Positions 1 through 25,038 of a stretch of DNA of 64,000 nucleotides are shown one piece after another. The notes beneath the pieces are model-generated. The model saw only the letters and a list, made by a program, of their open reading frames with translations, was not told the DNA's origin and did not search any database. How positions within the stretch are numbered: the stretch's first letter is position 1; each line of letters starts with the position of its first letter. The position numbers and the translations under genes were made by a program. This DNA is from Schmidtea polychroa (Eukaryota): the NCBI GenBank assembly GCA_044892525.1, contig CM097885.1, forward strand, positions 247,132,001-247,196,000, read 5' to 3'.

Positions 1-4
1 GAAG

Positions 5-7600: not shown

Positions 7601-10600
7601 AATATTACTGGCCAAATATGAGCGATGACGTGAAAGAATGGATAAAGAACTGCCTGATATGCGCAACCAGAAAAACAACGGGCAGTAAACTAAAGCCACC
7701 ATTGAAACCAATGCCGATACCGCCAGAACCAATGACAATGATTGCAATGGATGTAGTTGGACCACTACCAGAGACTAACAGTGGAAATGTGTATATATTG
7801 GTAATAACTGATTATCTGACCAAGTTCCCTGAAGCATTTGCGATGCCAGACCAGAAAGCACGAACAGTTGCAAGGATATTAGTGGAAGAGATCTGCTGCA
7901 GATATGGGACACCAAAACAAATCTTAACTGATCAAGGAACTAATTTCATGAGCGAGATAATAAATGAAGTGACAAATTATTTTAGAATTGCCAAATTGAG
8001 AACCTCACCATACCACCCGCAAACGAATGGTCAGACAGAAAGATTTAACGGCATACTAATAGACATGATGTCCAATTACGTGAGTAAACATCAAAAGGAC
8101 TGGGATGAATATATTAAGTTGTGTCTAATGGCTTATCGAATGTCAATACACTCAGCAACGAAAATGAGTCCGTTTAAACTCATGTATGGAAGGGAATGCA
8201 ACATGCCGATGGATCTCGAATACCAACCGCCAATCTCACAATATATGGAGATAGATGATTATGTGACAAAGTTCAAGGAGAGAATGCAAGAAATATGGAA
8301 AACCGCAGGGATGAACATCCGATTCAACCAAGAGAGTTATAAGGAATTGCATGATAAAAAGAAGAACGTACAAAACCATCAATTTAAAATCGGAGATTGG
8401 GTTATTATAGAAACACCCGAATTAATCCCAGGAACAGCAAAGAAATTACAACGTAATGGCAGAGGGCCATATGAAGTCATCTATGTAAACGAGAACAACG
8501 CTAGAGTGAAGTTGGTTAACAATCCACTAATTAGACCCATTTATGTGAATACATGTCGATGCAAAGCAGTAGCGAAAACTGCCACTAAAGACCCAGAAAC
8601 AAGAAGGATAATCACGAGATCACAAACAAATGCCACAACGGAACCAGAAGTAAGCGGTAGATTAACTAGATCACAGACAAGACGAATATTCATGTTGAGA
8701 GGAGAAACAAGCAGCAGCGCCCATAAAGGAACTGAAGCAGAAAGCGAAGCTGACGCAATGGCAAGGAGCCAAGCAACATGGAATATGACAGTAAAAATAG
8801 CACGAGAAATTGTACCAGAATGGGCCGATATAACCAATAAATACCAAGTATTGGGCAAACTAATGTTAGTAGCAGAAAGATATGCGAAAGGACGAAGATA
8901 TGCCGAAGGATTACAAATACCGACTCAAATATATGAACTAATCCGGAGATTACCAATCATGTTCCTAACAAGTGATTTGAGTAATAACTGGCCAATCCAT
9001 CATGCAGTGAAAGCAGGACAAGAAAAACGAGCTTTAGAGATTATACGAATAATGGAAAACTGCAAACAATCAACAAACGTCAAAAACAGTAAAGGAAAAA
9101 CTCCACTGATGAAAGCCATAGCAATAGGCGCGTCAAGAGATGTACTCAGAGAATTATTAAGAACGGGATCCACGCTGAAAGAAAAAGACAACAAACAACG
9201 AACCGTATTACGTTATGCCGTCAGGTCAAAAAGACCTAGTATAGTGAACTTTATCACAGGAAATGCAACAACCGAAGAAGCCGAGGTGTTGGGACAGAGC
9301 ATTGAACCAATTCTGGAAGCCATCAGAGGAAACTTAGACAGAACCGCAGCAATATTAATCAAATGGAAACAAAACGAATTAAGAGCGGAAGTAATTGATA
9401 TAAATCAATTCCAAAACAACGAAAATATCGTACTAAGAAGCGCCATATACTCAAGACCACCAATGCCAAAAACCATTAAAGCAATATTACAGAGAAATAG
9501 AACAGAATTGACAGGTAATTGGTGGAAATGCACAAAAACACATGCGATGAAAAAGCAACTAGAAATACTAGTGTGGGAATGGCACCGGAAACAACGGAAA
9601 TATCAAGGAACCAAAGAAGAACGAGAAAGTATCCACAACGACAAAAAAGAGATAATTAAAAAATACGAGGAGATGATCAAAGCAGCAAATGTCGAGGACG
9701 ACATTTTCAGGAAAACCCCGGGTGAGAGGAATGACGACGACGACGACGACGAAAGGATGGGGGATAACGATAACAACCCAGAGGAAAACGACAGAGAACA
9801 GAATCCGGAAGGCGGAGAAACAACGAGTGATGATGAGGAATTGGAAGAAGACGAAGAAGACCAATGTCGAGGTGAAGATCAAGGATTCGACAAAACGGAG
9901 AACAAAAAACGAAAGTCCCCACTACATAGCATAGTGTGTCGAAATCAAATCCAGCCAATCCTACTACAAAGAATATTTATAATATTAACATCCATCTGTT
10001 TAACAGAAACAAAAAATATAAGAATCGTAAGAGAAGCTTCCCAAGAAGGTGAAGCATTTATGATAAAAGTCAGTGATTACGACGGAAATGCCGTCGGAAT
10101 ATGTGTGCAATTAATGGAAGGAACAGGAGTAAGTTGTGATTTCAGATCGATAACAAAAGGAAAGATTTTTAGCAGCCAAAAAAGAGATCCCAGGCTATGT
10201 GGAGATTATGACATCTGTAGAGACATATCAACAGAGGAAATGGAGCTAGAAAGAGCCAACGAAACCGGAGTACATTTTCAACTCAACATTTTGGAAGAAG
10301 GTATCGAAATAGAAGATAAAGGGAGTCGATCAATTACACATGTATGCATCAGAGAAGACAGAGACATATGCATAATAACTGATATGACACAAGACCACAA
10401 ATTCTTCTGGGGAGAGGTCAAACCAAATACCCCTACTGTGGTATGCGCAGGAACACAAGGGATAGTAGTATGTAAAGGAACAAGAACTGCACCAAGAAAA
10501 GACAAGCCAAAGAGTATGGCAATGAAACAAGATCCATTAAGGGGGATAGCAACCAAGAAGCCAAACAAATCAGTTAGTACAAAAACAACAACAGAGCAAA

Positions 10601-11448
10601 ATCAAACCGAATTAATAACAACAACAACATGGATTAACGAAGTAATTAAAGACGAAAGACGGGAAGTGCAGATAACTATTAACCTCAACAAGAAAGGTGA
10701 AGAGGTAATTACAGTCAAAAACCAGGAAGGAGAACCAATCATAAGGATATGTGTAATGGATAAGACGGGAATAATCGACTGTACAACAACACCGATAGAC
10801 AAAGGTACAGACGTTAAAATGGAGACAGGGAAACGGAAAGAACGATACCAAGTATGTATCCTTAAGAAAGGAAGAGGAACCAGCGTATGTCAACCAATAA
10901 CTCGACAAAAACCCCAATTAATAAACATACCATGGATACCCCGAGATCAAGAAGGGGGAGAGAAACGGGAAAATCACAGTCACCTAACAGAAAAAGAGAA
11001 GGAACGATTACATCAAGCATTCAAGAAAATCAAAGCACCAGAAACAAATACCACAGGTAGTACAATATTAACGACAGAAAAAACAAATAATGGAACAACG
11101 ATCATCACAAAGATGATATGGATAACTAGCGCGATAGTAAGCACGATAATAGCGTTAGCAATGATTCAGTGGATAAGAACCACCAAAAGATGTAAACAAA
11201 AACCGAGAAACCAAAGAAAATGGCCCAAAGTGGAAAAATTTGAATACGGTATTCCAACAGAGAATCTGAATCTAGAAGAATACGAGGTGGTAGAGGATCC
11301 CGGATCCAGCGGATTGTGGATGTCGGAACTACCAAGAATACCCACACCGAACGAATGGACACACGAAGTCGATATATACCGAATAACGGACGAAAGATAT
11401 GGGGGAATGCGCACGCTGCATTCCGGCCCCATGGCGACACTGGTATAA
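3217..11448 (+). CDS. pol: Polyprotein part 2: glycoprotein remainder, Pol (PR-RT-RH-IN), ankyrin repeats, C-terminal membrane protein
   Basis: 2743-codon uninterrupted frame, open from 3130; listed start is TTG, so it is probably the continuation of ORF1. Confidence 0.95.
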   Translation: MNGQLVSGVVVIESYEAKLERYQGYFDPDTQAMKKYPSCLASDRSCSTGMSTLVYHADQKVCRLMLLKTAIFEEIQGKVYSEPKGEAEKRAMEELRARKGFREDVITSKLESEVTPTAIISKDDGIGMRFIKNKMVSKCDEMVISTNYKGIYLSRRTLANAVGRLSEKDVKLYLYANNKMDFLYHRGLTSTEKVYHDLLRNDCLLNKEILRTKLAMAITNPDNAIPLLPLQEGYFGRIVGEVMYTYQCKKIMARLPENPTIPRDKCANELEIIHEGKPRFVQAVTRVMNPVGFQPNLFNCSNAYGPMYEKEDGQWVQFPSKTIVVTPKKFGLTELTTELEFKPIDVSQSGLYTPKDLESARAHLLFPAQRQAILSNIVTISGGNNYGESPNYELLLSPSHYQQATANMMKAMWGRFLVFGQMMAGILGIILIIQIVRVILTQMLACFDIYKRERKVNWKLAIGFLPFLAKTMVLHGHSKDIHRIKRLLKILTQMKGTDEEVGRKFKVIMRLEAERTQEKAKRTGKWKKWMNLRRDDDSDNDNDDFDDDDNNQGGAMLINKNTATWENEKMKPWGSPYSQTPYLQAPTNGPMRRPGTMRERIRMGTGRLPVPNIYPTAYEPNWAAMDPTMIKPIKNVGQEVETRTIAVLQTPAGPSLTITVEVNGIEMDAMIDTGANISAINMNMLPGRLWPCIEETTMDVITCSKQSIAVVGRVWSTIEYKGVKVTTYLAVIRQLSVSCIIGTDVMPELLKEIVIDLSSMKLKDKTGQICTMRTEVRCSEKMIIPARTQTICYVKVDNEVKGDMIFEPSQKFEKRRELPLAREIVSINEDNEIPINITNFDEEDKVIYENERLGKLTPMMNIELPEIKSEGADEKELWTIDSELLNKDEKEQLRQLLIEFKDIFAASDLELGTSDVTQHIIPLTDETPITLRPYRLAEAQKTVAEEEVQKMLDAGVIEPSCSPWQFPVVMVKKKDGTQRFCIDYRRLNAVTKRDTYPLPDINEMLQMLHGAAYFTSLDLKSGYWQIKVKEEDREKTAFTIGKDLYQFKKMPFGLTNAPASFQRCMNFVTHGIKQCMVYIDDLLIYSGTFEQHLIDIRNVFIRLKQWKLKLKPSKCDWAKERVTFLGHIVSAKGKEPDPRNVEKIKNCPIPKTVTQVQEFLGLCGYYRKFIKNYATIAKPIQELTKKDTPFLWEREQQIAFESLRDKLIASPILIHPDFKKPFLLATDASGYASGAVLGQWDEEKRERVIGYYSKTFKKHEKNYSVTEREALAIIQAIKHFKYLLWGHEIIITTDHQPLVWLGQHKEASSRLMRWAMQLQEYSPYIKFKSGKANANADCMSRFVFEELMDHDVRRICLIIAEDIDFTNLKNEQKEDNELKLIIEFLEKNDMKIFNNDDRLKEHMEKNRHRYTIEKGWLLVMDGDKRLMCLPESRRKEIMIQYHDGKLGGHMSAKKTEARLKQKYYWPNMSDDVKEWIKNCLICATRKTTGSKLKPPLKPMPIPPEPMTMIAMDVVGPLPETNSGNVYILVITDYLTKFPEAFAMPDQKARTVARILVEEICCRYGTPKQILTDQGTNFMSEIINEVTNYFRIAKLRTSPYHPQTNGQTERFNGILIDMMSNYVSKHQKDWDEYIKLCLMAYRMSIHSATKMSPFKLMYGRECNMPMDLEYQPPISQYMEIDDYVTKFKERMQEIWKTAGMNIRFNQESYKELHDKKKNVQNHQFKIGDWVIIETPELIPGTAKKLQRNGRGPYEVIYVNENNARVKLVNNPLIRPIYVNTCRCKAVAKTATKDPETRRIITRSQTNATTEPEVSGRLTRSQTRRIFMLRGETSSSAHKGTEAESEADAMARSQATWNMTVKIAREIVPEWADITNKYQVLGKLMLVAERYAKGRRYAEGLQIPTQIYELIRRLPIMFLTSDLSNNWPIHHAVKAGQEKRALEIIRIMENCKQSTNVKNSKGKTPLMKAIAIGASRDVLRELLRTGSTLKEKDNKQRTVLRYAVRSKRPSIVNFITGNATTEEAEVLGQSIEPILEAIRGNLDRTAAILIKWKQNELRAEVIDINQFQNNENIVLRSAIYSRPPMPKTIKAILQRNRTELTGNWWKCTKTHAMKKQLEILVWEWHRKQRKYQGTKEERESIHNDKKEIIKKYEEMIKAANVEDDIFRKTPGERNDDDDDDERMGDNDNNPEENDREQNPEGGETTSDDEELEEDEEDQCRGEDQGFDKTENKKRKSPLHSIVCRNQIQPILLQRIFIILTSICLTETKNIRIVREASQEGEAFMIKVSDYDGNAVGICVQLMEGTGVSCDFRSITKGKIFSSQKRDPRLCGDYDICRDISTEEMELERANETGVHFQLNILEEGIEIEDKGSRSITHVCIREDRDICIITDMTQDHKFFWGEVKPNTPTVVCAGTQGIVVCKGTRTAPRKDKPKSMAMKQDPLRGIATKKPNKSVSTKTTTEQNQTELITTTTWINEVIKDERREVQITINLNKKGEEVITVKNQEGEPIIRICVMDKTGIIDCTTTPIDKGTDVKMETGKRKERYQVCILKKGRGTSVCQPITRQKPQLINIPWIPRDQEGGEKRENHSHLTEKEKERLHQAFKKIKAPETNTTGSTILTTEKTNNGTTIITKMIWITSAIVSTIIALAMIQWIRTTKRCKQKPRNQRKWPKVEKFEYGIPTENLNLEEYEVVEDPGSSGLWMSELPRIPTPNEWTHEVDIYRITDERYGGMRTLHSGPMATLV
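5180..5460 (+). other. Retropepsin aspartic protease
   Basis: AMIDTGANISAI (DTG at 5230) and downstream CIIGTDV (IIG.D motif). Confidence 0.93.
6000..6700 (+). other. Reverse transcriptase (Gypsy type)
   Basis: RFCIDYRRLN, YPLP, LDLKSGYWQI, MPFGLTNAPASFQR, YIDD at 6448-6459, FLGHIVS. Confidence 0.97.
6880..7250 (+). other. RNase H (Ty3-type)
   Basis: LATDASG..GAVLGQ, NYSVTEREALAI, TDHQPL, RLMRWAMQLQEY, KSGKANANADCMSR. Confidence 0.96.
7480..8500 (+). other. Integrase with HHCC zinc finger, DDE core and GPY/F module
   Basis: YHD...GHMS...CLIC; AMDVVGPLP; TDQGTNF; YHPQTNGQTERFN; RGPYEV at 8461-8478. Confidence 0.96.
8990..9490 (+). other. Ankyrin repeats (3 clear, up to 5) fused downstream of integrase
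   Basis: WPIHHAVKAGQ; KNSKGKTPLMKAIAIG..DVLRELLRTG; KDNKQRTVLRYAVRS match the G.TPLH.A...G consensus. Confidence 0.85.
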
Positions 11449-11596
11449 CGAGAGGAGGAGTTGTTGTAAATAATGTATAAATGAAATGATAAAAGTAGTG
11501 ATAATAGTAGTGGTATGTACAAAATAAAAGTAGTAAATTAAAACAATATGTAGAAAAATCAAAAACAAGTATGATGACCATGTATTATAAATAGGA

Positions 11597-12052
11597 ATGA
11601 ACCAGAGAAACGAAGAGCAAGAACACCCAAATGGGATACCACATGTTGTTGAAGTAAGAGAACAGCCGCTTATGAATGTACATCCAGTAGACATGATGGA
11701 AATGAACGTGCCAAACCAGCCGAGTCAGCCAACAGGATCCATGTGGAGGGCACAGTGTGAATTAATGACCCAATTGACAAATCAGACTCAAGAGCACTGG
11801 GTACGAAACCAAACGGCGTTGATAGAGAGTATTAATAGAAACGCAATATATATTACAAAAATAGAGGAACAACACCAAATAATCGCGCAACTAGAGTATA
11901 ATAACAATCAGTTAATAAGCCAAATCAGATGGCAAGCGGAAGAAATTAGAAGGTTGCATGAAAATCGACAACATGATGATATTACCAGTTTAGTCGAGTG
12001 GATGACCGGGTTACCAGGAACAGGGGAACCGGACTCGACGGTAGATGTGTAG
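11597..12052 (+). CDS. Cargo ORF, 151 aa, central coiled coil, unknown function
   Basis: ATG start, same strand and composition as the element, heptad pattern ITKIEEQHQIIAQLEYNNNQLISQIRWQAEEIRRL. Confidence 0.7.
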   Translation: MNQRNEEQEHPNGIPHVVEVREQPLMNVHPVDMMEMNVPNQPSQPTGSMWRAQCELMTQLTNQTQEHWVRNQTALIESINRNAIYITKIEEQHQIIAQLEYNNNQLISQIRWQAEEIRRLHENRQHDDITSLVEWMTGLPGTGEPDSTVDV

Positions 12053-12141
12053 GAGAAAAAGGAGTGAAATGTAAATAATCCTGTAAATAAATAGAGTTAT
12101 AATCAAGTAGAAATCCCAAGATTAAAAATCATCATTGTAGA

Positions 12142-13566
12142 ATGCAAAACAAAGCAGAGGAAAACCGGAGAGAAGCAGAGGAACAAAAGATTAACTATGA
12201 GTTGATGAGAAAATACCAAGCCGAGCCGGACGAGTTCGAAGAGAGATTATTATGTGCCGATACAGCATGTAGAAGATTATTAATTGGAGCAAGTCAAACT
12301 CGATGCGGGTGTAGATTGTGCCGAGGGTGTGATATAAGATTAGCCAGACTAAAGCGAGAAACTTGTCCAGGATGTGGAGAAGCATTTAAGTTGGTTCCCA
12401 CTGGTACGATACCGGATAGAGCAATGAACCGAGAAATCAGAGAAGTGAAAATAAGATGCACCCAAAGGTCATGCGAATGGACAGGCCGAGTAAAGGAGTT
12501 AAGAGCCCATACAGACGTATGCGAATATCTAGAATCGGAATGCGAAGCATGCACGGTAAAGTTTTTACGAAAAGAGAAAACCAAACATAAAGGGGAATGC
12601 AAAGCGCGAACGGAAAAATGCGAATTTTGCGGAGAAACTGCTAATTGGAGAGAAATCGAAATGGAACATCGAAACGCAGTAGAAAGACGGATTTGCGACG
12701 AATATACAGGGAAATGCCCAAACGAGTGTGGAGAAATTAACAACGTCAGATTAAATGAACATTGGGAGATATGCACGAGAAAAGCAATAAAATGCCCAAT
12801 GGTGACATTCGACTGTAGAGCACAATTACCAGCAGAAGAAATGAAGAAGCATGTGGAGGAGAATACATTCGAGCACATGCAAAAGATGATGAGAGCAATA
12901 GAGTTAACAGCAAGAGCAATTGAAGACGTCAAAGACGAACTCAAATCACATAAAATCATGATAAAAGAAATGCTGAGCTCACAGGAAAGCTTCGAAAATA
13001 CGAGAGAAGCCGTAACACAAAGGATGTTGAAATTAGACGACAAATTAGTCGAAGTAACTAAATTACAAACCAAATGGACTACAAAGGAACTGACAACAGA
13101 GGAACTACCAATACTACCATACATGTGGAAAATCCAAGGAATAACGGAAATAATGGAGCAAGCAAAGCAAGGAATCCAGACAACGATAGTGAGCAAACCA
13201 TTCTACGCCAAGAAACATGGATACAAGATGAAATTGAGATGGTTTCCAAATGGTGAAGGAAAGTTTAAAGATCGGTGCATGTCCATATATATGCAAATTT
13301 GTAAAGGAGATTTTGACGACCTAATAGCATGGCCATTCCGACATCGATTAAAAATATCTCTCTTAGGAGCAAAAAAGACACATATAATGTGTTTTCGAGC
13401 ATCCAGTCCAGCAGGGAATAAACCGATTACAGAGGTTAATCCTGCGGTAGGAGTAGCAGAGTTTATGCAGCTATACCAATTTAACGAAGGGTCCTACATA
13501 GAAAAGGACACTATATTCTTCCTAATCGAACTAGATGAGGAAGGACCAACAATAGAAATACGATAG
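12142..13566 (+). CDS. traf: Full-length intronless TRAF-family protein (variant RING, TRAF zinc fingers, coiled coil, MATH)
   Basis: RING CADTAC...CGCRLCRGC...CPGC; zinc fingers C...C.W.G....L..H...C; MATH YMWKIQG...SKPFY...YKMKLRWFPNGEG...GDFDDLIAWPF. Confidence 0.93.
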   Translation: MQNKAEENRREAEEQKINYELMRKYQAEPDEFEERLLCADTACRRLLIGASQTRCGCRLCRGCDIRLARLKRETCPGCGEAFKLVPTGTIPDRAMNREIREVKIRCTQRSCEWTGRVKELRAHTDVCEYLESECEACTVKFLRKEKTKHKGECKARTEKCEFCGETANWREIEMEHRNAVERRICDEYTGKCPNECGEINNVRLNEHWEICTRKAIKCPMVTFDCRAQLPAEEMKKHVEENTFEHMQKMMRAIELTARAIEDVKDELKSHKIMIKEMLSSQESFENTREAVTQRMLKLDDKLVEVTKLQTKWTTKELTTEELPILPYMWKIQGITEIMEQAKQGIQTTIVSKPFYAKKHGYKMKLRWFPNGEGKFKDRCMSIYMQICKGDFDDLIAWPFRHRLKISLLGAKKTHIMCFRASSPAGNKPITEVNPAVGVAEFMQLYQFNEGSYIEKDTIFFLIELDEEGPTIEIR

Positions 13567-13706
13567 ACGGATAGAAGGGAACTGTAAATATTTTGTAAAA
13601 ACGATGTAAAGTAAATATAAAGTTATTGTATACAGTAAAGTAACGTGCCAAAACCATAAAAATTAGAAAAAGAAAATGTAAAAAGAAATGATGAAATTTA
13701 TTATAG

Positions 13707-14885
13707 ATGATTAATCAAGAGAGACCGAATATCCGAAAGAAAACGATCACAATGAGAGAGGAAGAGGACAATATGTCACCTAGAGAAAGAGTGAAGGATG
13801 CGGAAGTCAGCAAAACAAAACCAAGTAGTTACGCATATTATCGGAGAATGGGAAACGATTATAATTGGGTACACGAAAATTTGAAACTGGGAAATAATGA
13901 ACAATTCAGATGTGAGAACCAGAGATATCTGTCATTTGAACATCAGACCATTTTTACCAAGGAACAAAGCCGAGCGCTAGCACGCGACGGATTTTTCTTC
14001 TCTGGAAAACCAGAGATACCCGATCAAGTAACATGTCGTTTCTGTAAAGGGAAATTAGCAGAATGGAAAAAAGGAGAACACCCAAAGGAGGAACATCGTA
14101 GACGATTCCCAACTTGTCTATTCGTACTGGGATTTGATGTACACAACAAACCGGAAATCAAATACGAAGCCTTGGAGAAATTGAAAACTGAAGACGAAAA
14201 AGGAGGGAAAATGAGCATCGCGATAACCAGAATCGTTGATGAGTATGTTCCAACTTGTGAAGGGGAATTCCTCACGCAAATAGCAGATAATAGAATGAAA
14301 ACGTTCGGAGATGATACGAGAGGACCTGAATTAGCAATAAGAGGGTTCTACCTAACAGAAAATCAAATACTAAAGTGTGAAAGATGCGAAAGCCAACAGA
14401 GATTACCGGAAGAAGGCATACCAGAAATTAGACATCAAGCATGGTGCCTATATCACAACGAACAAGAAACCGAATATCCGGAAGTACTAGTAACAGAGGA
14501 AGAGGTTGACGAAGTGGTAGACAAACCCAACATGTGCAGAGCGTTGAAAGCAGCCGGAATAGGCACGACAAGGGCAAAGAACATGATTAGAGAGAAACTA
14601 CAGAAAAATGTACATATACCAACAACAACGTACGATATGATCAGAGCGATAACCCAGTATAGAGAAAAACCTGAAACAAAAATAAAAGAAGAATCAATGG
14701 TCAAAACAGCTATCTTACGAGATATCAAATGTACTATGTGTTGGGAGAGGAGTGTAGAAGTTATTCATATGCCATGCGGACATTTGATCGCATGTGCCAC
14801 ATGTAGTAGAAAAGTAAAGGAATGTCCGATGTGCAGACAGAGGATTGCGCAGCGAATCAAAGGATTCCGCTACGCCGATCAATAA
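13707..14885 (+). CDS. iap: Inhibitor of apoptosis (IAP): BIR, degenerate BIR, C-terminal RING
   Basis: BIR1 R..SF...LARDGFFF...VTCRFC-x16-H-x6-C; BIR2 RMKTF...LAIRGFY...CERC...H...C; RING CTMC...PCGHLIACATC...CPMCR. Confidence 0.94.
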   Translation: MINQERPNIRKKTITMREEEDNMSPRERVKDAEVSKTKPSSYAYYRRMGNDYNWVHENLKLGNNEQFRCENQRYLSFEHQTIFTKEQSRALARDGFFFSGKPEIPDQVTCRFCKGKLAEWKKGEHPKEEHRRRFPTCLFVLGFDVHNKPEIKYEALEKLKTEDEKGGKMSIAITRIVDEYVPTCEGEFLTQIADNRMKTFGDDTRGPELAIRGFYLTENQILKCERCESQQRLPEEGIPEIRHQAWCLYHNEQETEYPEVLVTEEEVDEVVDKPNMCRALKAAGIGTTRAKNMIREKLQKNVHIPTTTYDMIRAITQYREKPETKIKEESMVKTAILRDIKCTMCWERSVEVIHMPCGHLIACATCSRKVKECPMCRQRIAQRIKGFRYADQ

Positions 14886-14967
14886 CAAAAATTAAAATTC
14901 CGTGTATAAAGTGTAGATAATAAATGTATGAAATAATAGTGGTAGTAATAGTGTAATTATTTAGACA

Positions 14968-16533
14968 ATGAATAAAGAATCACAAACCTATGTGGAAACC
15001 GAGATGCAACAACTCGAACAGTACAAATCCATCATACAAACATACGAAGCAGAAAGAGTAAAGAGAGAAATAGAAATGTACAAAACCATGTATGAGAAAA
15101 AGCAACAAGAATTAGAAGCGGAGAAGGCGGAAGCACTAGCAACAAAGGAGGAGTGGATGAAACAGGTAGAGGAATTAACCGAGGATGTGAGAAATACCTC
15201 AACATACCAAGAATTGGAGGAAGAGCTCTCGAATTTACGAACTCAGCGGATTATGGAGATAGTTGGGTTATGCGGAGAGATAATAATGCAGAAGGCACAA
15301 ATTAGGGAAGCAAAGGAGCAATACGAGGAGGAACAGCGTAAAACGGAACGAATAAAACTACAAGCGCAACAATGGAAACTAAAGTACGAAACCCTCCAGA
15401 CAAGGCAGAATGATAGTCACGAACATCAAATACGGAATTACAAGGCCGAACTAGAAGAAGTAAAGGGCAAATGCGCAATGATGAAAGAAAAATGGGAAAG
15501 ATGCAAAAAGACCCTAAACGAAGTCAGAGGGCAAGGGAGGAGAACACCGCATAGAGAACCAATTGTTAGAAATAACGTATTAGAGCGAATTAACACACAA
15601 ATAAAGATACAAGCCCAGAAATGGAAGTATAAATACCTAGGAAGTCAAACTCAAGTGCTCTATTGGAAAATCAGTAGCAAGGAACAACTGCGATTACGAA
15701 AAGCAGACCAAGAATTTTACGAAACAAGAGCTGCACAGCGAGAAGAAGAGGAAGTAGAGTGGAGAAAACGACAGCAGAAAACTGAGGAAACCGAAAAGTG
15801 TCTCAAGCATCAAGCCCGAAAATGGAAAAAGAATTGGAAAGAGACCAAAGAGGAGTTAAGACAGTTACCAATAAAACTGATGGAAAGAGACGAATTTAAA
15901 ATATGGGAAACGATAGAAAACCAAAAAGATGAGATCAGCCGATTGAGTAGAGAACATAGAATCAAGACGCGGATCAGCGACGGTAGACAGAGAATCATAA
16001 AGAAACAGACTCGAGAAATAAGAAGGTATGAATTCCAGGAAAAGAGATGGGAACAACAATTGACAGACCAAGATCGACAGATCCGACAATTACAAACCGA
16101 AGTGGAAGAAGCCAATCAAGAGATGAACGGATATAAAGGTATGTACACCCAAAGGGATGTGAATTGGAAGCACCAGATTGAGCTTAATGCGAAATATAGA
16201 GAGGAGTGCGACAAGACAATTCAACAAACCAAACAGGAAACCGAGATAATAAAACGATGCTTCGAAGAAAATGAAGCAAATTTGAGAGCGGAAATTGAGA
16301 AACTAAAAACGCTCGAAAGAACCCAACGATTGGAAGAGGAATTAAACGAAATGATAGAAAACGAAGGTAGATTAACGTTTTTATTGGATGAGGAAATAAA
16401 CATCTCAACGGAACTACGAGAGGAAATAGATCGGTTAAGGAGACAACCACCAATATTATTAATGCCTGCCGAAGTCACCACAGATGAAGGCTTCGATGAA
16501 AATAACGAACAAAATAACGCAACATGGATTTAG
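14968..16533 (+). CDS. Cargo ORF, 521 aa, long coiled-coil protein
   Basis: E/K/Q/R-rich heptads along most of the length; ATG preceded by an acceptor-like TAG. Confidence 0.8.
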   Translation: MNKESQTYVETEMQQLEQYKSIIQTYEAERVKREIEMYKTMYEKKQQELEAEKAEALATKEEWMKQVEELTEDVRNTSTYQELEEELSNLRTQRIMEIVGLCGEIIMQKAQIREAKEQYEEEQRKTERIKLQAQQWKLKYETLQTRQNDSHEHQIRNYKAELEEVKGKCAMMKEKWERCKKTLNEVRGQGRRTPHREPIVRNNVLERINTQIKIQAQKWKYKYLGSQTQVLYWKISSKEQLRLRKADQEFYETRAAQREEEEVEWRKRQQKTEETEKCLKHQARKWKKNWKETKEELRQLPIKLMERDEFKIWETIENQKDEISRLSREHRIKTRISDGRQRIIKKQTREIRRYEFQEKRWEQQLTDQDRQIRQLQTEVEEANQEMNGYKGMYTQRDVNWKHQIELNAKYREECDKTIQQTKQETEIIKRCFEENEANLRAEIEKLKTLERTQRLEEELNEMIENEGRLTFLLDEEINISTELREEIDRLRRQPPILLMPAEVTTDEGFDENNEQNNATWI

Positions 16534-16546
16534 TCGAAGGGAGATG

Positions 16547-16704
16547 NNNNNNNNNNNNNNNNNNNNNNNNNNNNNNNNNNNNNNNNNNNNNNNNNNNNNN
16601 NNNNNNNNNNNNNNNNNNNNNNNNNNNNNNNNNNNNNNNNNNNNNNNNNNNNNNNNNNNNNNNNNNNNNNNNNNNNNNNNNNNNNNNNNNNNNNNNNNNN
16701 NNNN
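16547..16704. other. Assembly gap (N-run) inside the element
   Basis: Run of n. Confidence 1.
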
Positions 16705-16775
16705 AAATTACAAAACCAAAAAATTCAGAATAAAAAGAAGACAAAAGGAAATATGATATGTATATTTTTGTAGAT

Positions 16776-17543
16776 ATGAATTATTTAAAAGAAAGAGAAT
16801 CAACGAGTAACGAAGGAAAGTCAAACGACCAACCTGAACAAAACCAGGATATGATACCAATCAAACAAGAACCGATGAAATATTATAGCAATAAATGGAG
16901 AGTCAGCAAGAAGTTGTTCAAATTAAAGATTGCAAATCAAAATGTAGAGATTACGAGATTGAGGCAGCATATTGTTCAATCAAGACGATTAATAAACACT
17001 GTCAAGCAAGAAATTTTGAGGGAAATAAAGGAATCGAAACGAAAAGAGACAGAAAATAAAAACCTGAGACGAGAGATAGTAGAGTTGAGAGCTCAGGCAG
17101 TAATCGAAGATTATTGGAAATCAGAAACAAGGAAGTTGAAAAAGATTGTGAATATCGACCAAGTCTATATCGAGCAGTTAGAAGCACAATATGCTTATGC
17201 AAAAACAAGAGTGCGAGAAAGTAAAAAAGTCGAGAAGAGAAATGTAAAACTCAAGGAAGAGATCAAGGAACAAAGAGAGGAAACAGAAAAACAATGGAAG
17301 TTGAAAGAAAATTACCGGAGAATCTTAAATCAAAAACGACGAAGCATGCAAGCATTGCAGACGGCAATAACCATCAAGCAGAGAAAATGGAAAAGTAAAG
17401 AGAAGCAATTACAAGAAATACCAGAATTAAAGAGACAGTTGATAGCAACGCAACTCGAAGTAATAAGAATGAACGAGTTGAGCAAAAGACGAGCACCTGA
17501 ACCTCCCGTAAAATTAAGGGATGAGGTCGGTGGCTCCCAATAA
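16776..17543 (+). CDS. Cargo ORF, basic coiled-coil protein (~255 aa; ATG 16776 preferred over 16758)
   Basis: Open frame 16758-17543; TTTTTGTAG acceptor directly before in-frame ATG 16776, matching the other cargo ORFs. Confidence 0.75.
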   Translation: MNYLKERESTSNEGKSNDQPEQNQDMIPIKQEPMKYYSNKWRVSKKLFKLKIANQNVEITRLRQHIVQSRRLINTVKQEILREIKESKRKETENKNLRREIVELRAQAVIEDYWKSETRKLKKIVNIDQVYIEQLEAQYAYAKTRVRESKKVEKRNVKLKEEIKEQREETEKQWKLKENYRRILNQKRRSMQALQTAITIKQRKWKSKEKQLQEIPELKRQLIATQLEVIRMNELSKRRAPEPPVKLRDEVGGSQ

Positions 17544-17619
17544 ATGAGACAAAATAACCGTGTAAATAAATTGTAAATAAAGCCAAGTAATTATTATTAA
17601 CATATATGTATATGTAAAG

Positions 17620-18606
17620 ATGAGAAGCCTAATCGTGATGATGATTATAATGACAATGCCAAAAATCCTGCAAGCAGAAGAATCAATGATCAGATGCCAG
17701 AAAGAATACCCATATCGCAGAGAAGATAGTACATGTAGTAGCTTTAAATCGATCTGCGAAAAACCCAATGAGGAATGCGAACAAATCAAGTTACAATGTT
17801 CGCAATGTCCACAAACAACTGAAAGTTCGACGGAAGTGCAAATGGCTCAGACAATAAAAACAATGTTAGAACAAGAAATGAAAGTTATCAGAACCCAGAT
17901 AGCAACATTAGCCAAACAATGTCAAAGTCAGAAATCAAAGAGAGAATCCCAAACAGATCCAGCCGCAATGAGAATGATGGTAATAATATTAGAGGAAATA
18001 AAACAACAGGTAACAGCAACCGCCTATGGACGTTCAAGCAATTGCGAAACAGTAGTAAAATCTTTGGAGGAAATGAAAGGAAAAATAACTTCCATCATCA
18101 AAGAGGAACCCAGCATTAAAAATGAGGTAACGAAAACCTTGAAAGAAATGACAAGGGAAATCCTAACTACCATAAACAAAAACCCAACGAACTCCGAGAA
18201 GATGATTAAAACCCTTGAGGCAATAAAGAAAGTTGTCACCTCAGAAGAAAACAAATTCAATAAGCCCGAAAAATCAGAAACGGCGGATACAACCCAATTA
18301 AAAGAAATTATGAACAAACCCAAAGTAATAGAACCGAGAGAGTCTGAATCCCTCACAATAGTGATCCTATTAGCGGCGAGCCTAATGATAAACATCACCG
18401 TACTGAGCCTGATTGCACTCAAACCCAATTCCAGTAAAGAAAGAAACAAAACCCTCAAACTAAAGGAACAATCAAGAAGTATTCGTATCCCAATGGAAGA
18501 ACAACTAGTCCAAACAACGAACCAACCAAGCTACTTCAAATCTTCCCCAAACATTGAAACCAGAGCCGTCATCGAGACGAGATCCCGAACAACCGAATTT
18601 TATTAA
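17620..18606 (+). CDS. Cargo ORF, 328 aa type I membrane protein with Cys-rich N-terminus
   Basis: Signal peptide MRSLIVMMIIMTMPKILQA; six-Cys cluster; TM LTIVILLAASLMINITVLSLIAL followed by a basic tail. Confidence 0.8.
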   Translation: MRSLIVMMIIMTMPKILQAEESMIRCQKEYPYRREDSTCSSFKSICEKPNEECEQIKLQCSQCPQTTESSTEVQMAQTIKTMLEQEMKVIRTQIATLAKQCQSQKSKRESQTDPAAMRMMVIILEEIKQQVTATAYGRSSNCETVVKSLEEMKGKITSIIKEEPSIKNEVTKTLKEMTREILTTINKNPTNSEKMIKTLEAIKKVVTSEENKFNKPEKSETADTTQLKEIMNKPKVIEPRESESLTIVILLAASLMINITVLSLIALKPNSSKERNKTLKLKEQSRSIRIPMEEQLVQTTNQPSYFKSSPNIETRAVIETRSRTTEFY

Positions 18607-20959
18607 TGTGACATCACGACAGTATAAACATTTCATGACATTATAAAACATTATCAAACAATCATGATTTCAAAGACTGAGACTGATTGTGACTAATAAC
18701 ATTGATTCTTGAGCATGATAATTTTATTTTTGTGTGGACCGACCTCGGTCGTTCTTTTTCTTCATCTTTCAACCCATCCGTAGAATGTAGTATAATAGTA
18801 GCCTTTTTATGTATGTGGGTATTGAGGTCACGACCCTGTAGCTCGTGGACCCAATTTGCATGTAGGCACTTGTAATATAGTGCAAGTATTCTGAAAATAA
18901 TTTTCTTCATCTTGTGATTTAAATTGCGGGTCGCAATTTTATGGGCCCCCGAGTGTTTTATGTTGGGCTAGAACTGATTTCTAGACCCAAAATACTAATT
19001 GTGACTGAAACGCGTAAGTACACAGCAAGTAAAAAAGCACCAAGTATAGTTAAATATTAAAACCTACACCAAATAAACAATATTAACTAAAGGAGAAAGC
19101 AACAAAAACATAAACAAAGAAATTAAACAAAATTATACAAAAGCAAGAAGTGATGCAAAAATCTAACTCAAAAATAACCAAATAAACACAGGGTTACAAA
19201 AAACAGACTCGAATAACTTAAAAGACGATAAAAACAGTAAAACATTCCAGAAAAACCCAGAACATTCTATAAAAATGGCGATGACCATCACAAAAGTTAT
19301 CTAGAACAACAAAAGTTAAGGAAAATAAATAAATTAGTATTAAAAATAATAAATCTTTAAAAGAAATTCACAAAACATCAGTTAAAATAAAAATTAAATT
19401 AAAAATAAAATAGAATGTTCTGGAACCGTTCCAAATCCATCATGGACGGCAAATTAACGAAAAATAATTAAAAAATAAAAATATAAAAATAAAAACAAAA
19501 ATTATGGCACAAAAATTGTCATTAAAAATAGCAAAATCGCTAAATAGAAAATTCTGGAATAAAAAGAATTCGAGTTTGTTTTAATGCATCAATACATACA
19601 CGTGTACTAAATAGGTATATATACTGACACGTTTCAGTCACAATCAATCACTTTTATGCCAAATTTTTGTGACGAAATTTCCAAAATCGATAGTAAGCAT
19701 TGATCTTTATTTGTATATTAATTGTTTAATTATATAGATGGTATTTTAAATTTATTTTTTGCTTAAAATTTTTTGCGATGTATGAGTGATCAACGGCGTA
19801 CTGGTATTCCTGCGTCGTTGTTCAGTCCTGCATCCAATTTATTAAAATCGCTATTAACAGGACATGCAGACACGCATTATCATTATTATAGTGATATTTA
19901 TTATATGATTTCTTTTTGTTCGGGTCAGCCGGAGGTCGAACTACTTCATGGTCCTGCCATGGAGTTAGGTCGAGGAAACCCTCCGCCTGACTCTTCGTAT
20001 TTATTTAAGGTCAGCCGTAAATGGTTGACTTAGCACACAACACTAAGGTTTGTGGACGTGGTCACAGTGAGGCCATGAAAGCAATATTCTTCCCGACTCA
20101 TTGCGTAATATACAATTAAACTCAACACTTAAAATCCTGAACAATAACTCTACACTAAGGTTCTAATTTGAGTAGAGCTCGTACCTAAAATTACACAATT
20201 CTACACTCACATTAATGTAGCTAGTTGATTCATAATGGTAATTTCAATTATACTTAGACATATGCCGAACTAGATTTTGTAGTAAGGATCTTTGATAAAG
20301 TAATAGAAAAAAGAGAGATATTCGGCATACGTACAGGTATAACTTGATCTAGATATGTTGATTCCGAGTAAAGATAGACATTTTAAATCTAGCTCCCACT
20401 TTAAAATGTTTGTAAATGTGTAGGCTCTTAGTTGCAATATTCTTGTTGTTAACTATAAAACTATAAGTTATAAATAATTACGATAGCTAGGTACAAACCA
20501 CGTCGATCCTGAAAATGTAAATTGTTAATGGAGAAAGTCTGATCAGAGATAGTAGTAAACAATTTTCGTATAAAAATCAACTTAGGATTGGTTACAGATA
20601 GGCGATAGACGCGCTAGAACCCTGAAGTTTAATCCACAAATAGGACCAGGAAATCTGTAAGTACTGCGGAAAACAATGTTGATCATAGAAGGAAGTTGTA
20701 AGAAGTATATTCCGTCGACTAAAAATTTCAAATTATAAAGTATGAAAATACGAATTACAAAAGTATAAATTTTAGATTATAAACTTATAAATTATAAGTT
20801 AAGCAATTATAACTTATAAAAAATGAATGTATAAATTTCAAAATATGAAATTAATTATAAATTACAAGATTGTAAATCCCTAAATGGAAAAATTTTAAAT
20901 TATAAATCGAAAATTATCAAAGTATAAATTATAAAACATGAATTTATAATTCTAAAACA

Positions 20960-21320
20960 TGGATTATAAAATTATAGTTATCATAATCCTGATCATTTCC
21001 CTTGTTATTACTATTAGCAGTATCAACATTATCATTACTATTAGTATTATTATTCTTATTATTATTATATTATTATTATCATTATTATGAATATCATAAT
21101 TAGCATTATTATTATTATCATCATTATCAGTACCATTATAAAAATTTATTATTATTCTTGTTATTACTATTATTAGTATTCTTATTATTACCATTATTAA
21201 AATTTATTATTATTCTTATTATTATTACTATCATTGCTATTATTAATATTATTATTATCATTATTATTACTATTATTAGTATCGTTATTTCATTGTTATT
21301 ATTATTGGTATTATTACAGT
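20960..21320. repeat. Degenerate (ATT/ATC/ACT)n trinucleotide microsatellite
   Basis: About 360 nt of attatt/atcatt/actatt units. Confidence 0.9.
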
Positions 21321-21831
21321 TAACTACAAAAAATCGATATCCCAATCCGATATCGATCACCTGGAAATTTAGAAATTAGCAAATTAAATAAATTACTTGT
21401 ATGCAGAGCAAACCACTCATAACGAGCACAACCGAAGGAAAGGTAAGCAGACGAAGAGCTTAGTTCGTTGCTAGTACCTGTCGCCCCAGCGTGCCCGAAT
21501 TTAGTGGCCTAAGAATGACGATCAAAAAGGAAAAAATTCACATTTTATTAATATGTAAATTAAAATTTATAAATAGTAATTAAAATTACTACTCAGTGGT
21601 AAACAAAATTTTGAATGGAAATGATTAATTTAAACAAACGAATTTTGACGAAAATTTTTTTTGTGTGTTTGTTTTGATAAAGTAGGAAATCTTATTCCAC
21701 TGCTCCTAAACTTATAGATGGTAGTCTTAAAATAAAATATTTTTTTTTAAAGGGAAAAAGGGTCAACAAAATCTTGTGGTTGACGTCGTATCTCAATCAG
21801 TATAGAGGGGCTTGATTATTATTTTGTAGAA

Positions 21832-22197
21832 ATGTCCTACTCTGACAGCGATAGCCACGAAGAAGCCGACCGACAGATGCTTACCAGACTCCGTACACGG
21901 TACATATGGCACCGTATCCATGATTGGAATCGGGGTTTGGACCTCGACAACTTTGGCCCAGTAATCAGGAGTGGGCCGGAGCCGGACGCTCCGGCGTGGG
22001 TAAAAACAGAGCCCACAAACGATTTTTTGCAAGAGGCCCGCGACCGAGCGGCCATCGAGGTAGAAGCAGCTCAGATGCGACTCAAGAAGATCGAGCTACA
22101 AATCCAAGCAGAAAAAGAGGGAAAAACCGTGGAGGACCTAGAAGAGGCCGAGGCAACCCCGCGGAAGAGGGGAAGGCCTCGCAAGCGACTGAACTGA
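21832..22197 (+). CDS. 121-aa protein with C-terminal AT-hook
   Basis: GC-richer island; PRKRGRPRKR; TTTTGTAG acceptor 2 nt before ATG. Confidence 0.6.
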   Translation: MSYSDSDSHEEADRQMLTRLRTRYIWHRIHDWNRGLDLDNFGPVIRSGPEPDAPAWVKTEPTNDFLQEARDRAAIEVEAAQMRLKKIELQIQAEKEGKTVEDLEEAEATPRKRGRPRKRLN

Positions 22198-22408
22198 CTC
22201 ATCGTCAAAAATTTTGTTTTTTGCAAATTAACATTCAGTTGCGATTTTATTAAACTTTGATTTTAGTGATAATTATTTCAGTCCTTTTAATAAATCATCT
22301 TGTGTATTGCGTGCTTAACATCCGAAACTATGTTTATTTATAATATTGATTTTATTTTATAATTGAATGAATAGTATGCTGCAAGAATATAATCGTTGAA
22401 TTTATCTA

Positions 22409-22879
22409 GTGTTCAGACTATTGGAAAATCTGCGAAGAGATAGGGCAGAAGCTCAAAAACAGTCCGAGGAGCTCCGCATACGAGTAGACAAGCTCAAGGG
22501 ACGGTGCCGGGAACTAGAAAGCACCTGGTTTAGTCCCGAGGATATGAAAAAGAAGGTGGCGCAGGTCCTTCAACTGCAGACTCAAGCCGCGCAGGATCAG
22601 ATGGAGATCCGGGCACTGAAGCTCCAGCTCCGCGCGCTAGAAACCGAGCGAAATGAACAAGTAGTTCACGGAGCCGCCATAAGCCAAATCCGGCCGTTGA
22701 CCGTGGAACTAGCAGCAATATACCCCCCGGCCGCGAAAGAGAAACCCAAAAGAAAGCGGTTAGGCCGAAATATTCGGGAAAAATTGAAGAAAGCTAGACT
22801 GGCCGAATACGAGCGACAAGCAAATTTGTCACTAGCAGCTGCGACGAAATTGGCCAGTCCTACCAATAAGCCTGTTTGA
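22409..22879 (+). CDS. Coiled-coil protein with basic NLS-like C-terminus (5' end probably supplied by splicing)
   Basis: 156-codon frame without ATG at its start; TTTATCTAG acceptor at 22401-22409; KPKRKRLGRNIREKLKK. Confidence 0.55.
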   Translation: MFRLLENLRRDRAEAQKQSEELRIRVDKLKGRCRELESTWFSPEDMKKKVAQVLQLQTQAAQDQMEIRALKLQLRALETERNEQVVHGAAISQIRPLTVELAAIYPPAAKEKPKRKRLGRNIREKLKKARLAEYERQANLSLAAATKLASPTNKPV

Positions 22880-25038
22880 ACTTATATTCGGTTTTAGGTG
22901 TTTTGTAGTATTTTTATGTATTGTGGTAGTCTTCAAATAATATGTTCCTTGTTAAAATACTGCACGTTTTGTAGTGATAAAATAATGACTAGTACAGTTT
23001 ATGATTGCCTGGGAAATGAGAGTTTGTGCATAAGGTTGGGAAAACAATTTTGATAAAGGGACCTGAGAAATCGGACACACACCTTCTATCGGTAGTCCGT
23101 GAACCCACGGAGTACTCGACAACTATAGTGCTTTGATGCGCTCACTTTTTGCGAGTACTCAACCCTTGGTACAGTACCAACGTTGATCACTCAACGGGTA
23201 CCAAGCGGAAAAACAATGTTGTATTTTGGGTTACGCTGGTAACAGCACTCAATCATTCAACCACCAGTAACCCACCAATAGAAAATAAAAATTCAAAACA
23301 AAATTCAAGCACTTTATTTGAAATCATAATTTCCACTAAAAATTAATATTTTATGCAGTAACACAAAATGTCAAATACAAGAAAATTTATAAAAAATATA
23401 TATTTCAAAGCATAAATTTCAAGATTCGATAATCAAAACCATATCCGAATTGTTTCAAAGTGTTGACACATAAATCCAACAATTAATGGATATTGAAAAT
23501 CCACCATTGAATTTGAAAACAATTAAATTAGAAAAATAACTACTCAGCAATTATAATGGCATTTTAAAAACAGTAATTAATTATAAATCTAAATATAAAA
23601 AATTAAGAAACTTTCGAGTTTTTTCTGTACACTGGGATTCAGTAATACATTTAAATGCATATACTTAATTAAATATTTTATAGTTTTTTAATAGTTTCAT
23701 TATCGTTAAATTTTCTCTTTTTGTTTTGATTATCAATAATATAACTATTTGAATAATTATTTACATCACTATTGGAATAAACACTTGTAATCCTATAAGG
23801 TTGATTGACTTTGATCTTTTCAATAGGATTTACTCGATAATGATTAATGCTAGTCCTGAACAATAGGCCGTATTAAATAAACATTAAAAAAATAGATAAA
23901 AGCGAATAGCAATACGGGACCGTGAATTGATAAGATGGTTAATAGTTTTTCTTATTACAAGATTATTCCTATATTAAATCGACAAAATTAATAATTATAT
24001 CGACAATATTACTATTTATATCGACAATATTAATTATTATGGACAATATTAATTATTATCAATAATATAAATAGTTATTAGTAATGACAAAATTATTTAT
24101 TAAAAAGTTTGAAGACTGAATCAGTAAATATATCAAAATATATCGATATATTTACTGATTCGTAGTCTTTAAGCTTTTTACAATGGAAATACAATGGGAA
24201 AGAAATCAGTGGTGAAATTTGAAAAAAAGTTCTTATAATACAAAATTATTTATTTAATCTTTCTCTCTAAATCGTAGCGATATCCCGGAAGCAATTGCTC
24301 CAGTTATCATACGTATGCTCTTATTTTAGTTAATGAAAAATCCGAATCAAAAGAATTTAATAAAACAAATCAGCTATAAAAGATGTCATATAAATTCCTG
24401 ATATCTAACATATAGTGAAGCTTAATTTGCATCAACATTCGTCTATTACTGGTCTGCAAATCATCGAACATTCCAATGACATATAACAGTGCAGCTCTTT
24501 GATGAGCTGTGTGGCTCCCAATATCAGAGCAGTAGCTAGGGATGGCAAATGGGGCGACCGCCCCGGGCGCCGAGTCGAAGGGCACCAAAACTGTGAAATG
24601 ATCATTTAAATTTTTTTTGCTTTTCTTTCTTTTTTTCATATTAAATTTTTATATTCTGCTTTCGATGTTTACTGTTTTCAAAAGTTAAACTAAAACAAAA
24701 CTGTTTTGCTAGTCTATCTAAAGGTTTTTGCAAACAGGTGACTAAATCCGAAAGTGGCTGATCATGAAAACAGTCATGAGCATAAAAAACGCTATTTAGC
24801 CTGGAAAGATCTTGAAAATCGTTTGAAAGAATGAAGGACAATTAATGATAATGGTTATAGATATCGATATGCCCGATACAGTAGTCTATATATAAAAACG
24901 AGAAATCGGAGAATAGCCTATTCAATATTGAGAAAAGAATCAGAATTATTTTTTCATAGTAATGGAAATTTTGTAAAACATGGCGACTCATTTCTTGTAA
25001 ACTCGGCCACCCGCTGATATATTATAACGAAAACCAAC

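Follow-up and report, generated by a model that had tools for sequence, protein, structure and literature searches.

How can a gypsy element express eight or nine separate genes? This question is raised by a locus of Schmidtea polychroa that we analysed over 64,000 nucleotides of contig CM097885.1 (hereafter the window). The element found there is a Burro1-like giant Ty3/gypsy retrotransposon of planarian, 34.3 kb long (window coordinates -11062 to 23284), whose 5' LTR is outside the window, 11062-6740 bases upstream of its start. The polyprotein also starts upstream of the window and, in this copy, is split over two frames around 3130-3220. The parts inside the window are:

2..11448, + strand: polyprotein, 3' part (MATH, env-like fusion glycoprotein, protease, RT, RNase H, integrase, ankyrin)
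18961..23284, + strand: 3' LTR, 4324 bp like the 5' LTR, to which it is 99.93% identical

Few LTR retrotransposons reach the size of Burro elements; their hallmark of more than 30 kb in total with long LTRs was found here. The Pfam order in the polyprotein (MATH, env-like fusion protein, PR-RT-RH-IN, ankyrin) matches the Burro layout, and the hallmark cargo is present as well, with PF00653 and RING in the ORF named c3 below and zf-TRAF and MATH in c2. The 150 env-like proteins among the matches listed were left out of the argument. Burro1/GYPSM1 are described in the available passages of PMC6431247 as giant Ty3/gypsy LTR retrotransposons of planarians; according to the same passages they have in common with this element the size above 30 kb and the long LTRs, a single ~4,800-aa polyprotein, MATH, an env-like region between gag and pol, PR-RT-RH-IN and ankyrin, accessory TRAF, BIR and coiled-coil ORFs, and copies in hundreds. 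The element is assigned as Burro-like by architecture and domains.

Looking at the region between the polyprotein and the 3' LTR, we found six accessory ORFs, c1 to c6, each with an acceptor-like AG immediately ahead of its ATG:

11592..11594, + strand: acceptor-like TAG of c1, 2 nt before the c1 ATG
11597..12052, + strand: accessory ORF c1, 151 aa, no Pfam family
12138..12140, + strand: acceptor-like TAG of c2, 1 nt before the c2 ATG
12142..13566, + strand: accessory ORF c2, 474 aa, TRAF-like (TRAF zinc finger and MATH)
13704..13706, + strand: acceptor-like TAG of c3, 0 nt before the c3 ATG
13707..14885, + strand: accessory ORF c3, 392 aa, IAP-like (BIR and RING)
14962..14964, + strand: acceptor-like TAG of c4, 3 nt before the c4 ATG
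14968..16533, + strand: accessory ORF c4, 521 aa, no Pfam family; by eye charged and coiled-coil-like
16771..16773, + strand: acceptor-like TAG of c5, 2 nt before the c5 ATG
16776..17543, + strand: accessory ORF c5, 255 aa, no Pfam family
17617..17619, + strand: weak acceptor-like AAG of c6, 0 nt before the c6 ATG
17620..18606, + strand: accessory ORF c6, 328 aa; by eye a hydrophobic N-terminus

The start of c5 is the second in-frame ATG, the first being at 16758; position 16776 is favoured because related copies have no ATG at the upstream place. Beyond the window, on its upstream side, lies a RING ORF that is absent from the earlier note and also has a TAG-ATG start. The earlier note had described an AG before eight ATGs, the six of the cargo and those at 21832 and 58648, and all eight contexts are indeed present. 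The two outlying ones were confirmed in sequence (TAG at 2 and 3 nt, respectively); their position is another matter, since 21832 is in the 3' LTR and 58648 in a separate decayed Burro-like LTR remnant. The ORF at this last site is 26 codons long.

We then asked whether this arrangement exceeds chance. Within 0-3 nt, a distance chosen post hoc with the data already seen, an AG precedes 6/6 cargo ATGs, whereas among the element's remaining 780 ATGs on the sense strand 248 (31.8%) have one (p=1.0e-3). For YAG the figures are 5/6 versus 87/780 (p=9e-5), and 7/8 when the RING ORF and the first LTR ORF (LTRa) are added (p=1.6e-6). When the spacers were shuffled, six AGs out of six were reached in 0.1% of 5000 shuffles. 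When 2239 AGs were scored with a matrix built from 24 other acceptors, the ranks were 36-79 for five cargo sites, 404 for the RING site and 859 for the c6 site, and in five of the six spacers the putative acceptor was the best-scoring AG. The sites are weak by this measure: the best cargo acceptor is outscored by 35 other sense AGs, and the cargo acceptors score far under those of LTR type. Five of the six spacers also contain 2-4 upstream ATGs at 60 nt or less from the AG; splicing would remove them, and this was counted in favour of acceptor use.

Conservation among copies, on which the earlier note had made its proposal depend, bore the pattern out. The AGs of c3 and c4 are kept in 29/29 aligned copies at 90-97% identity (30 loci, one of them unrelated), further copies keep the AG at c1-c5 in 6/6 cases and at c6 in 5/5, and at the c3 acceptor the T at -3 is found in 182/182 matched genomic copies; in one decayed copy those of c2 and c4 are gone. 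A sister family, E, has cargo proteins of 23-37% amino acid identity and no BIR ORF. Among 20 loci of this family the AG is present at all recognisable starts (c1, 14/14; c2, 13/13; c4, 15/15; c5, 20/20; c6, 20/20), these starts having been chosen by motif and that of c6 taken at the second Met; the AG is thus kept at all five ORFs in common, with a spacing of 1-4 nt and with TAG, CAG and AAG interchanged. As the copies share ancestry, they should not be counted as independent events. Two further env-bearing families, B and C, are shorter and lack a cargo array on the sense strand.

The LTR was examined as a possible source of a leader, and the following features were identified in its 3' copy:

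19616..19692, + strand: TATA-like box (at 19616) and predicted leader exon 1 (37 nt, phase 1, weak-context ATG at 19656)
19693..19698, + strand: conserved splice donor A|GTAAGC, candidate common donor; its 5' LTR copy would be the functional one
21832..22197, + strand: LTR ORF a, 121 aa, RGRP motif by eye; acceptor TAG at 21827-21829, d=2, in frame with exon 1
22407..22879, + strand: LTR ORF b, conserved coding from its acceptor TAG (22407-22409), phase 1; first own ATG at 22544

In each of 16 LTRs from families A and F, exon 1 ends in A|GT(A/G)A within diverged flanks. Exon 1 is open in phase 1 in 11 of these 16 LTRs, with lengths of 37, 43 and 49 nt, and is in phase 2 in one; four have an early stop, and there the A|TG junction itself would make a start codon. 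At ORF b the AG is the start of conserved coding in three families. The F-type LTRs have YAG at this place in 13/14 cases, followed by TG in 12 and TT in 2, and in the two TT copies exon 1 is open in phase 1. Since the phase of exon 1 fits the ATG-less ORF b, whereas the planarian spliced leader (SL), which ends in ATG, would be out of frame for it, these data favour cis-splicing from a common LTR leader; the argument applies to ORFs a and b, not to c1-c6. Family E leaders contain a pair of strong donors, of which the first ends in G; the predicted exons of this family lack an AUG, and its ORF b homolog has its own ATG 5-9 nt past the AG. Two other candidates were dropped: the donor first considered, at 21443 (AAG|GTAAGC), which is in phase 0 to the upstream ATG and whose conservation was not shown, and a 34-39 nt micro-intron ahead of ORF b, whose donor is not kept among F copies.

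The spacers contain a second recurrent feature, a Pumilio-like TGTANATA module that begins 17-18 nt past each stop codon:

11465..11477, + strand: TGTA pair after pol, TGTAAATA first, beginning 17 nt past the pol stop
12070..12091, + strand: two TGTAAATA motifs after c1, beginning 18 nt past the stop, the second running into AATAAA
13583..13610, + strand: three TGTAAA after c2, beginning 17 nt past the stop
14903..14928, + strand: three TGTA after c3, beginning 18 nt past the stop
17561..17581, + strand: two TGTAAATAAA motifs after c5, beginning 18 nt past the stop

The module would likely serve as a binding site for a Pumilio-type RNA-binding protein just past the ribosome as it terminates, or else belong to an internal signal for 3'-end formation. 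An ordinary host poly(A) element is disfavoured, since planarian poly(A) signals are described in the available part of PMC5068929 as lacking UGUA on their upstream side. An Rfam search of 11400-23400 gave no match. The TATA-like box, the short LTR exon with its conserved donor and the TGTANATA module after the stops are new in this analysis.

Transcripts were sought in the assembled contigs of six runs, which are only guessed to be RNA and in which rare forms are lost. Among the matches listed for these runs no junction between leader and ORF was seen, and the contigs had neither a joint nor a leader-like or SL loose end at the acceptors of c1, c2 and c3; they pass unspliced across c2, c3, c4 and c6. 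In one run (X5) contig depth piles up at the end of c2 and in the c2-c3 spacer, and the c1-c2 spacer is without cover. One poly(A) end of this run is in the pol-c1 spacer, 31 nt upstream of the c1 start codon, and two fall within coding sequence of c2. The ends inside c2 mean that this is not proof of internal polyadenylation, as priming on A-rich tracts may explain the pattern. Cover is low in the middle of the LTR, probably through subfamily divergence, and was left out of the argument. Spliced genomic copies gave 0 matches for donors 21443 and 19693 and for the ORF b and c3 acceptors, in a search with a positive control for the c3 acceptor only (182 copies); no spliced cargo copies are expected under either splicing model because the primer-binding site would be lost with the splice. 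In the family E copy E106 a large deletion at the 5' end starts elsewhere than at the donor, so that this copy does not count as spliced. The Schmidtea SL has 41 exact genomic matches, which points to a planarian host; seven of them continue as GT and the SL-RNA body and are SL RNA genes, and 0/41 run into a Burro exon.

Taken together, it is well supported by the sequence comparisons that the AGs would be real splice acceptors separating a gene array. We consider it probable (about 0.6) that they are true, deliberately weak 3' acceptors and that each accessory gene would obtain its own mRNA by alternative cis-splicing from a leader exon of the 5' LTR. A conserved donor soon after a promoter-like motif of the LTR and an acceptor before each ORF, as such splicing implies, were both found. 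Transcription would start near 19635, exon 1 would be joined to LTR ORFs a and b, and c1-c6 would use the same or a nearby LTR donor across 22-28 kb. The weak-context AUG of exon 1 would share its frame with c1, c5, LTRa and LTRb; it is out of frame for five of the nine ORFs (RING, c2, c3, c4 and c6), for which leaky scanning past it would be needed. The conserved donor and the exon phase at the LTR ORFs favour the common leader; the use of the c1-c6 acceptors and their 5' partner are predictions. The earlier note had left the choice between LTR cis-splicing and the SL for an operon-like array: its acceptors are conserved and the phase-matched donor at 19693 backs the cis route, but the SL found no support in the sequence, and no spliced junction of either kind was seen.

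The 3' cargo might instead be a true operon, in which the spacers would be cleaved and polyadenylated and the host SL trans-spliced to the next acceptor, the LTR donor acting in cis for the LTR ORFs only. SL RNA genes do exist in this genome, and the spacers, 76-148 nt long and with AATAAA in four of five readable cases, resemble those of SL2-type operons as described in the available part of PMC12582326, where parasitic-flatworm acceptors are also said to serve often in both cis and trans splicing; Cer1, according to the excerpt of PMC3315495, makes an SL1-spliced mRNA. Such an operon would need neither introns of 22-28 kb nor an out-of-frame leader AUG, and the X5 depth pile and the poly(A) end before c1 could be taken as its products. 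However, AATAAA is not enriched (5 versus 4.5 in shuffles), the X5 poly(A) ends also fall in coding sequence next to a bare spacer, the AG-ATG distances have no bias to the frame of the SL AUG, no SL loose end was seen at c1-c3 in the contigs, and none of the 41 genomic sequences with an SL runs on into a Burro exon. We regard this operon as possible but doubtful. Slightly more doubtful is its fuller form, a genuine six-gene operon using the planarian SL machinery, possibly with a stem-cell-enriched SL, that would yield single-gene mRNAs for IAP, TRAF and the other cargo, a Pumilio-type site 17 nt past every stop coupling each message to host stem-cell translational control.

That no splicing occurs at these sites, the ORFs being expressed from spacer promoters or by termination-reinitiation through the stop-anchored TGTANATA and the AG being an initiator or start-codon context, seems improbable to us. 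The unspliced contigs and the weak matrix scores agree with it, as does the fixed distance of the TGTA module from the preceding stop, a hint of some role linked to translation; yet a start-codon context would fix the AG-ATG distance, and 0-4 nt are seen with YAG kept, five of the six spacers are crowded by upstream ATGs, and the same AG arrangement at ORF b is a coding boundary. Least credible of all is chance, or a relic of gene capture in which host exons came with acceptors that are now unused. AG is frequent on this purine-rich strand (it precedes 32% of ATGs) and c6 has only AAG, but the p values of about 1e-3 to 1e-6 speak against it, and it is largely refuted by the retention of the AG in family E, whose spacers otherwise differ.

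Splicing from a common leader has well-known counterparts. In complex retroviruses such as HIV and the foamy viruses, as in the adenovirus major late unit, a single promoter is followed by a short leader that holds the major donor, and numerous weak acceptors each stand just ahead of an ORF. The leader donor and the weak acceptor proposed before each Burro ORF are alike; unlike these viruses, Burro is a gypsy element whose acceptors, up to nine of them, are spread across about 28 kb; two of its ORFs sit in the LTR itself, past the donor, the junction can split a start codon, and a stop-anchored TGTANATA comes after each ORF. Another counterpart is the C. elegans gypsy element Cer1, which makes a cis-spliced subgenomic mRNA that occurs both with SL1 and without it, the sites being skipped in its genomic RNA; there, as far as the excerpt of PMC3315495 goes, one spliced product stands against the array of separate genes in Burro. 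In nematode SL2-type and flatworm operons, as presented in the available part of PMC12582326, same-strand genes less than 300 nt apart have an acceptor before each downstream gene, and close same-strand genes with an acceptor-like site before each are likewise seen in Burro; in contrast to those operons, the Burro array is within a mobile element with its own conserved donor, and SL addition would be hypothetical. No description of splicing of Burro accessory genes was found in the literature searched, which mostly excluded subscription journals; the Burro passages available from PMC6431247 contain nothing on accessory-ORF expression, 'trans-splic' having 0 matches there and the shown ones of three 'splic' mentions not concerning Burro.

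For one cargo gene of Burro1, B-IAP, a protective effect on planarian stem cells has been reported (Lee 2026, cited in the accessible part of PMC13465017). Burro1 is up-regulated in smedwi-2 RNAi animals. The stop-anchored TGTANATA module is of interest by itself, as a regulatory feature yet to be explained. If the SL operon were true, a retrovirus-like element would be running a host-style SL operon. If splicing from a common leader is true, Burro would have converged on the strategy of complex retroviruses and adenovirus, and the gain of cargo would be explained, each gene needing only a spacer of 76-150 nt with an acceptor.

The window opens with a giant LTR retrotransposon, of which the 3' two-thirds (23.3 kb) are inside it; the LTRs, 4324 bp each, are 99.93% identical to one another. 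Its parts and the related features are as follows.

5' LTR: 11062-6740 bases upstream of the window
RING ORF: in the 5' leader of the element
Polyprotein: MATH, env-like fusion glycoprotein, protease, RT, RNase H, integrase and ankyrin domains
Cargo ORFs, 3' of the polyprotein: six, namely c1, TRAF-like c2, IAP-like c3, c4, c5 and c6
LTR ORFs: two, inside the LTR
58500-59872: 3' remnant of a further Burro-like LTR, in which a decayed ORF follows an acceptor at 58644
11465, 12070, 13583, 14903 and 17561: starts of a TGTA(N)ATA module, each 17-18 nt past the stop codon upstream of it

The element family is already known: this copy matches the description of planarian Burro1/GYPSM1 in PMC6431247. 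A first look gave 436 candidate copies, and the 40 that were scored are all near 100% identical: a young and abundant family. This copy has its polyprotein split over two reading frames in the env-like region (3130-3220). Two further families, B and C, consist of shorter elements (13-17 kb, LTRs of about 0.8-1 kb) with the env-like region within a 3319-aa polyprotein, and the sense-strand cargo array is absent from them; the env family has 2580 first-look candidates in the genome. Outside the element, inverted repeat arms flank a masked stretch (25018-25227).

The earlier note had claimed that an AG stands 0-3 nt before the ATG of every cargo ORF, and each context it quoted was found in the sequence. 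Of the element's other sense ATGs, 780 in all, 31.8% are preceded by AG and 11.2% by YAG at this distance; compared with these, AG at 6/6 cargo starts gives p=1e-3 and YAG at 5/6 gives p=9e-5. With the RING ORF and the first LTR ORF (ATG at 21832) included, YAG is found at 7/8 starts (p=1.6e-6), the RING ORF being a blind test of the pattern since it lies outside the sequence on which the note was based. The AG-ATG at 58648 is present too, but in the separate, decayed LTR remnant. In scoring by a matrix derived from 24 acceptors of other families, five sites rank 36-79 among 2239 AGs, and the RING and c6 sites rank 404 and 859; the acceptor-like sites are weak. Conservation of the AG among copies was confirmed for c3 and c4, where, one of the 30 loci taken being unrelated, it is kept in 29/29 aligned copies (90-97% identity). 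It is also found at c1-c5 in 6/6 and at c6 in 5/5 further copies, and one decayed copy lacks it at c2 and c4. The sister family E, with 23-37% protein identity, carries the same cargo array minus the IAP gene and among 20 loci has the AG at all recognisable starts (c1 14/14, c2 13/13, c4 15/15, c5 20/20 and c6 20/20, the c6 start being set at the second Met); like the preceding counts, these come from related copies and hence are not independent events. In this family the AG-ATG distance varies from 1 to 4 nt, and TAG, CAG and AAG interchange. Since the AG is retained while its distance to the ATG shifts, it behaves like an acceptor and not like a start-codon context.

We then considered the LTR itself. 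When the LTRs are aligned, a TATA-like box is seen at 19616, and after it a short segment that runs up to a donor; the donor is conserved, unlike its flanks. This predicted leader exon (exon 1) has A as its last base, followed by GT(A/G)A, in 16 distinct LTRs from families A and F, the donor of one LTR being taken from the alignment in preference to an earlier match. The frame of the exon 1 AUG leaves in phase 1 in 11/16 LTRs (37, 43 or 49 nt) and in phase 2 in 1/16, and meets an early stop in 4/16. The conserved coding of the second LTR ORF (ORF b) begins at the AG of 22409, in phase 1, in three families, and its first ATG comes only at 22544; as judged from sequence, ORF b needs exactly such a phase-1 leader exon. 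In F-type LTRs its acceptor is YAG in 13/14; the next two bases are TG in 12 LTRs and TT in 2. The final A of exon 1 joined to TG would create an ATG, and in both TT copies exon 1 is open in phase 1 and would supply the start codon. The spliced leader (SL), which ends in ATG (PMC10899757, Fig. S6 of the supplement), would not be in frame. The first leader exon of family E has G as its last base; this family has no AUG in the predicted leader exons, and its ORF-b homolog has an ATG of its own 5-9 nt past the AG. This covariation of leader and ORF b is, we infer, the strongest argument for cis-splicing from a common LTR leader, one of the two mechanisms that the earlier note had proposed, and it bears directly on the LTR ORFs.

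In family E LTRs, CCAAT and TATA boxes precede a donor. The intron that follows measures about 46-48 nt and repeats the end of exon 1 in its 3' part; after it comes a second exon, about 150 nt long, with a donor of its own. A self-complementary block (CATGG...CCATG core, 19915-19990), conserved among family A LTRs and lying inside the predicted first intron, has no Rfam match and is a candidate export or packaging element; family E LTRs contain a related hairpin-like block.

For the 3' cargo, we favour cis-splicing from the LTR leader, with a probability of about 0.6. Were the LTR donor to serve c1-c6 as well, the introns would be 22-28 kb long, and RING, c2, c3, c4 and c6 would need leaky scanning past the leader AUG. 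An operon resolved by SL trans-splicing needs neither, and SL genes do exist, accounting for 7 of the 41 exact matches to the Schmidtea spliced leader in this genome; moreover, the gypsy element Cer1 is known to have an SL1-spliced mRNA (PMC3315495, in part), and acceptors of parasitic flatworms are often common to cis- and trans-splicing (PMC12582326, in part). We consider the SL operon rather unlikely. Not one of the 41 genomic sequences bearing the SL leads into an exon of Burro. The other 34 matches are not SL RNA genes: many share a similar short upstream motif followed by varied sequences, one downstream type recurs about nine times, and they are possibly captured or retroposed trans-spliced mRNAs.

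Contigs of six sequencing runs that are only guessed to be RNA cross c2, c3, c4 and c6 unspliced, and among their listed loose ends no joint or leader was found at the acceptors. Expression by unspliced mechanisms seems improbable to us, and chance as the origin of the AG pattern, which is a real feature, hardly credible. No spliced genomic copy was found in a search whose positive control covered c3 only (182 copies). In one of the runs (X5), a poly(A) end lies 31 nt ahead of the c1 ATG and depth piles up at the c2-c3 spacer, a pattern that may reflect internal priming because poly(A) ends also fall inside c2. A single, possibly chimeric X5 contig connects letters resembling an LTR start with the c2-c3 spacer. 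One family E copy (E106) has a deletion that begins 15 nt past the first LTR donor and stops shortly before gag; we rejected it as a spliced copy since the deletion ends are not at splice sites.

We found no published account of Burro accessory-gene expression, and Lee et al. 2026 (Burro1 B-IAP) may contain one; new here are the phase-locked leader exon and a module anchored to stop codons. TGTA begins 17 or 18 nt past the upstream stop in 5/5 fully readable spacers, all of which have a second TGTA at 26-30 nt. With the partly masked c4-c5 spacer excluded from the motif counts, TGTANATA occurs 7 times versus 0.83 in shuffles (p≈0.001), and AATAAA is not enriched (5 versus 4.5). The corresponding distances in family E, measured to the first TGTA, are 14 nt for pol, 18-19 for c1, in most cases 16-17 for c2, again in most cases 17-19 for c5, but 35-92 for c4. 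The pol-c1 spacer of this family also has a perfect donor-like GTAAGT about 30 nt past the pol stop (14/14 spacers shown), which could act in suppression of a nearby poly(A) site or in further splicing. Within the module, TGTAAATA and TGTATATA interchange. The Pumilio element is UGUANAUA; the alternation fits it, and the module would be Pumilio-site-like. Planarian poly(A) sites reportedly have no upstream UGUA, according to the available part of PMC5068929. Since its position is fixed to the stop codon, the module suggests a cytoplasmic protein bound just past the terminating ribosome, and this putative protein might, for example, keep mRNAs with long 3' ends stable or repress them.
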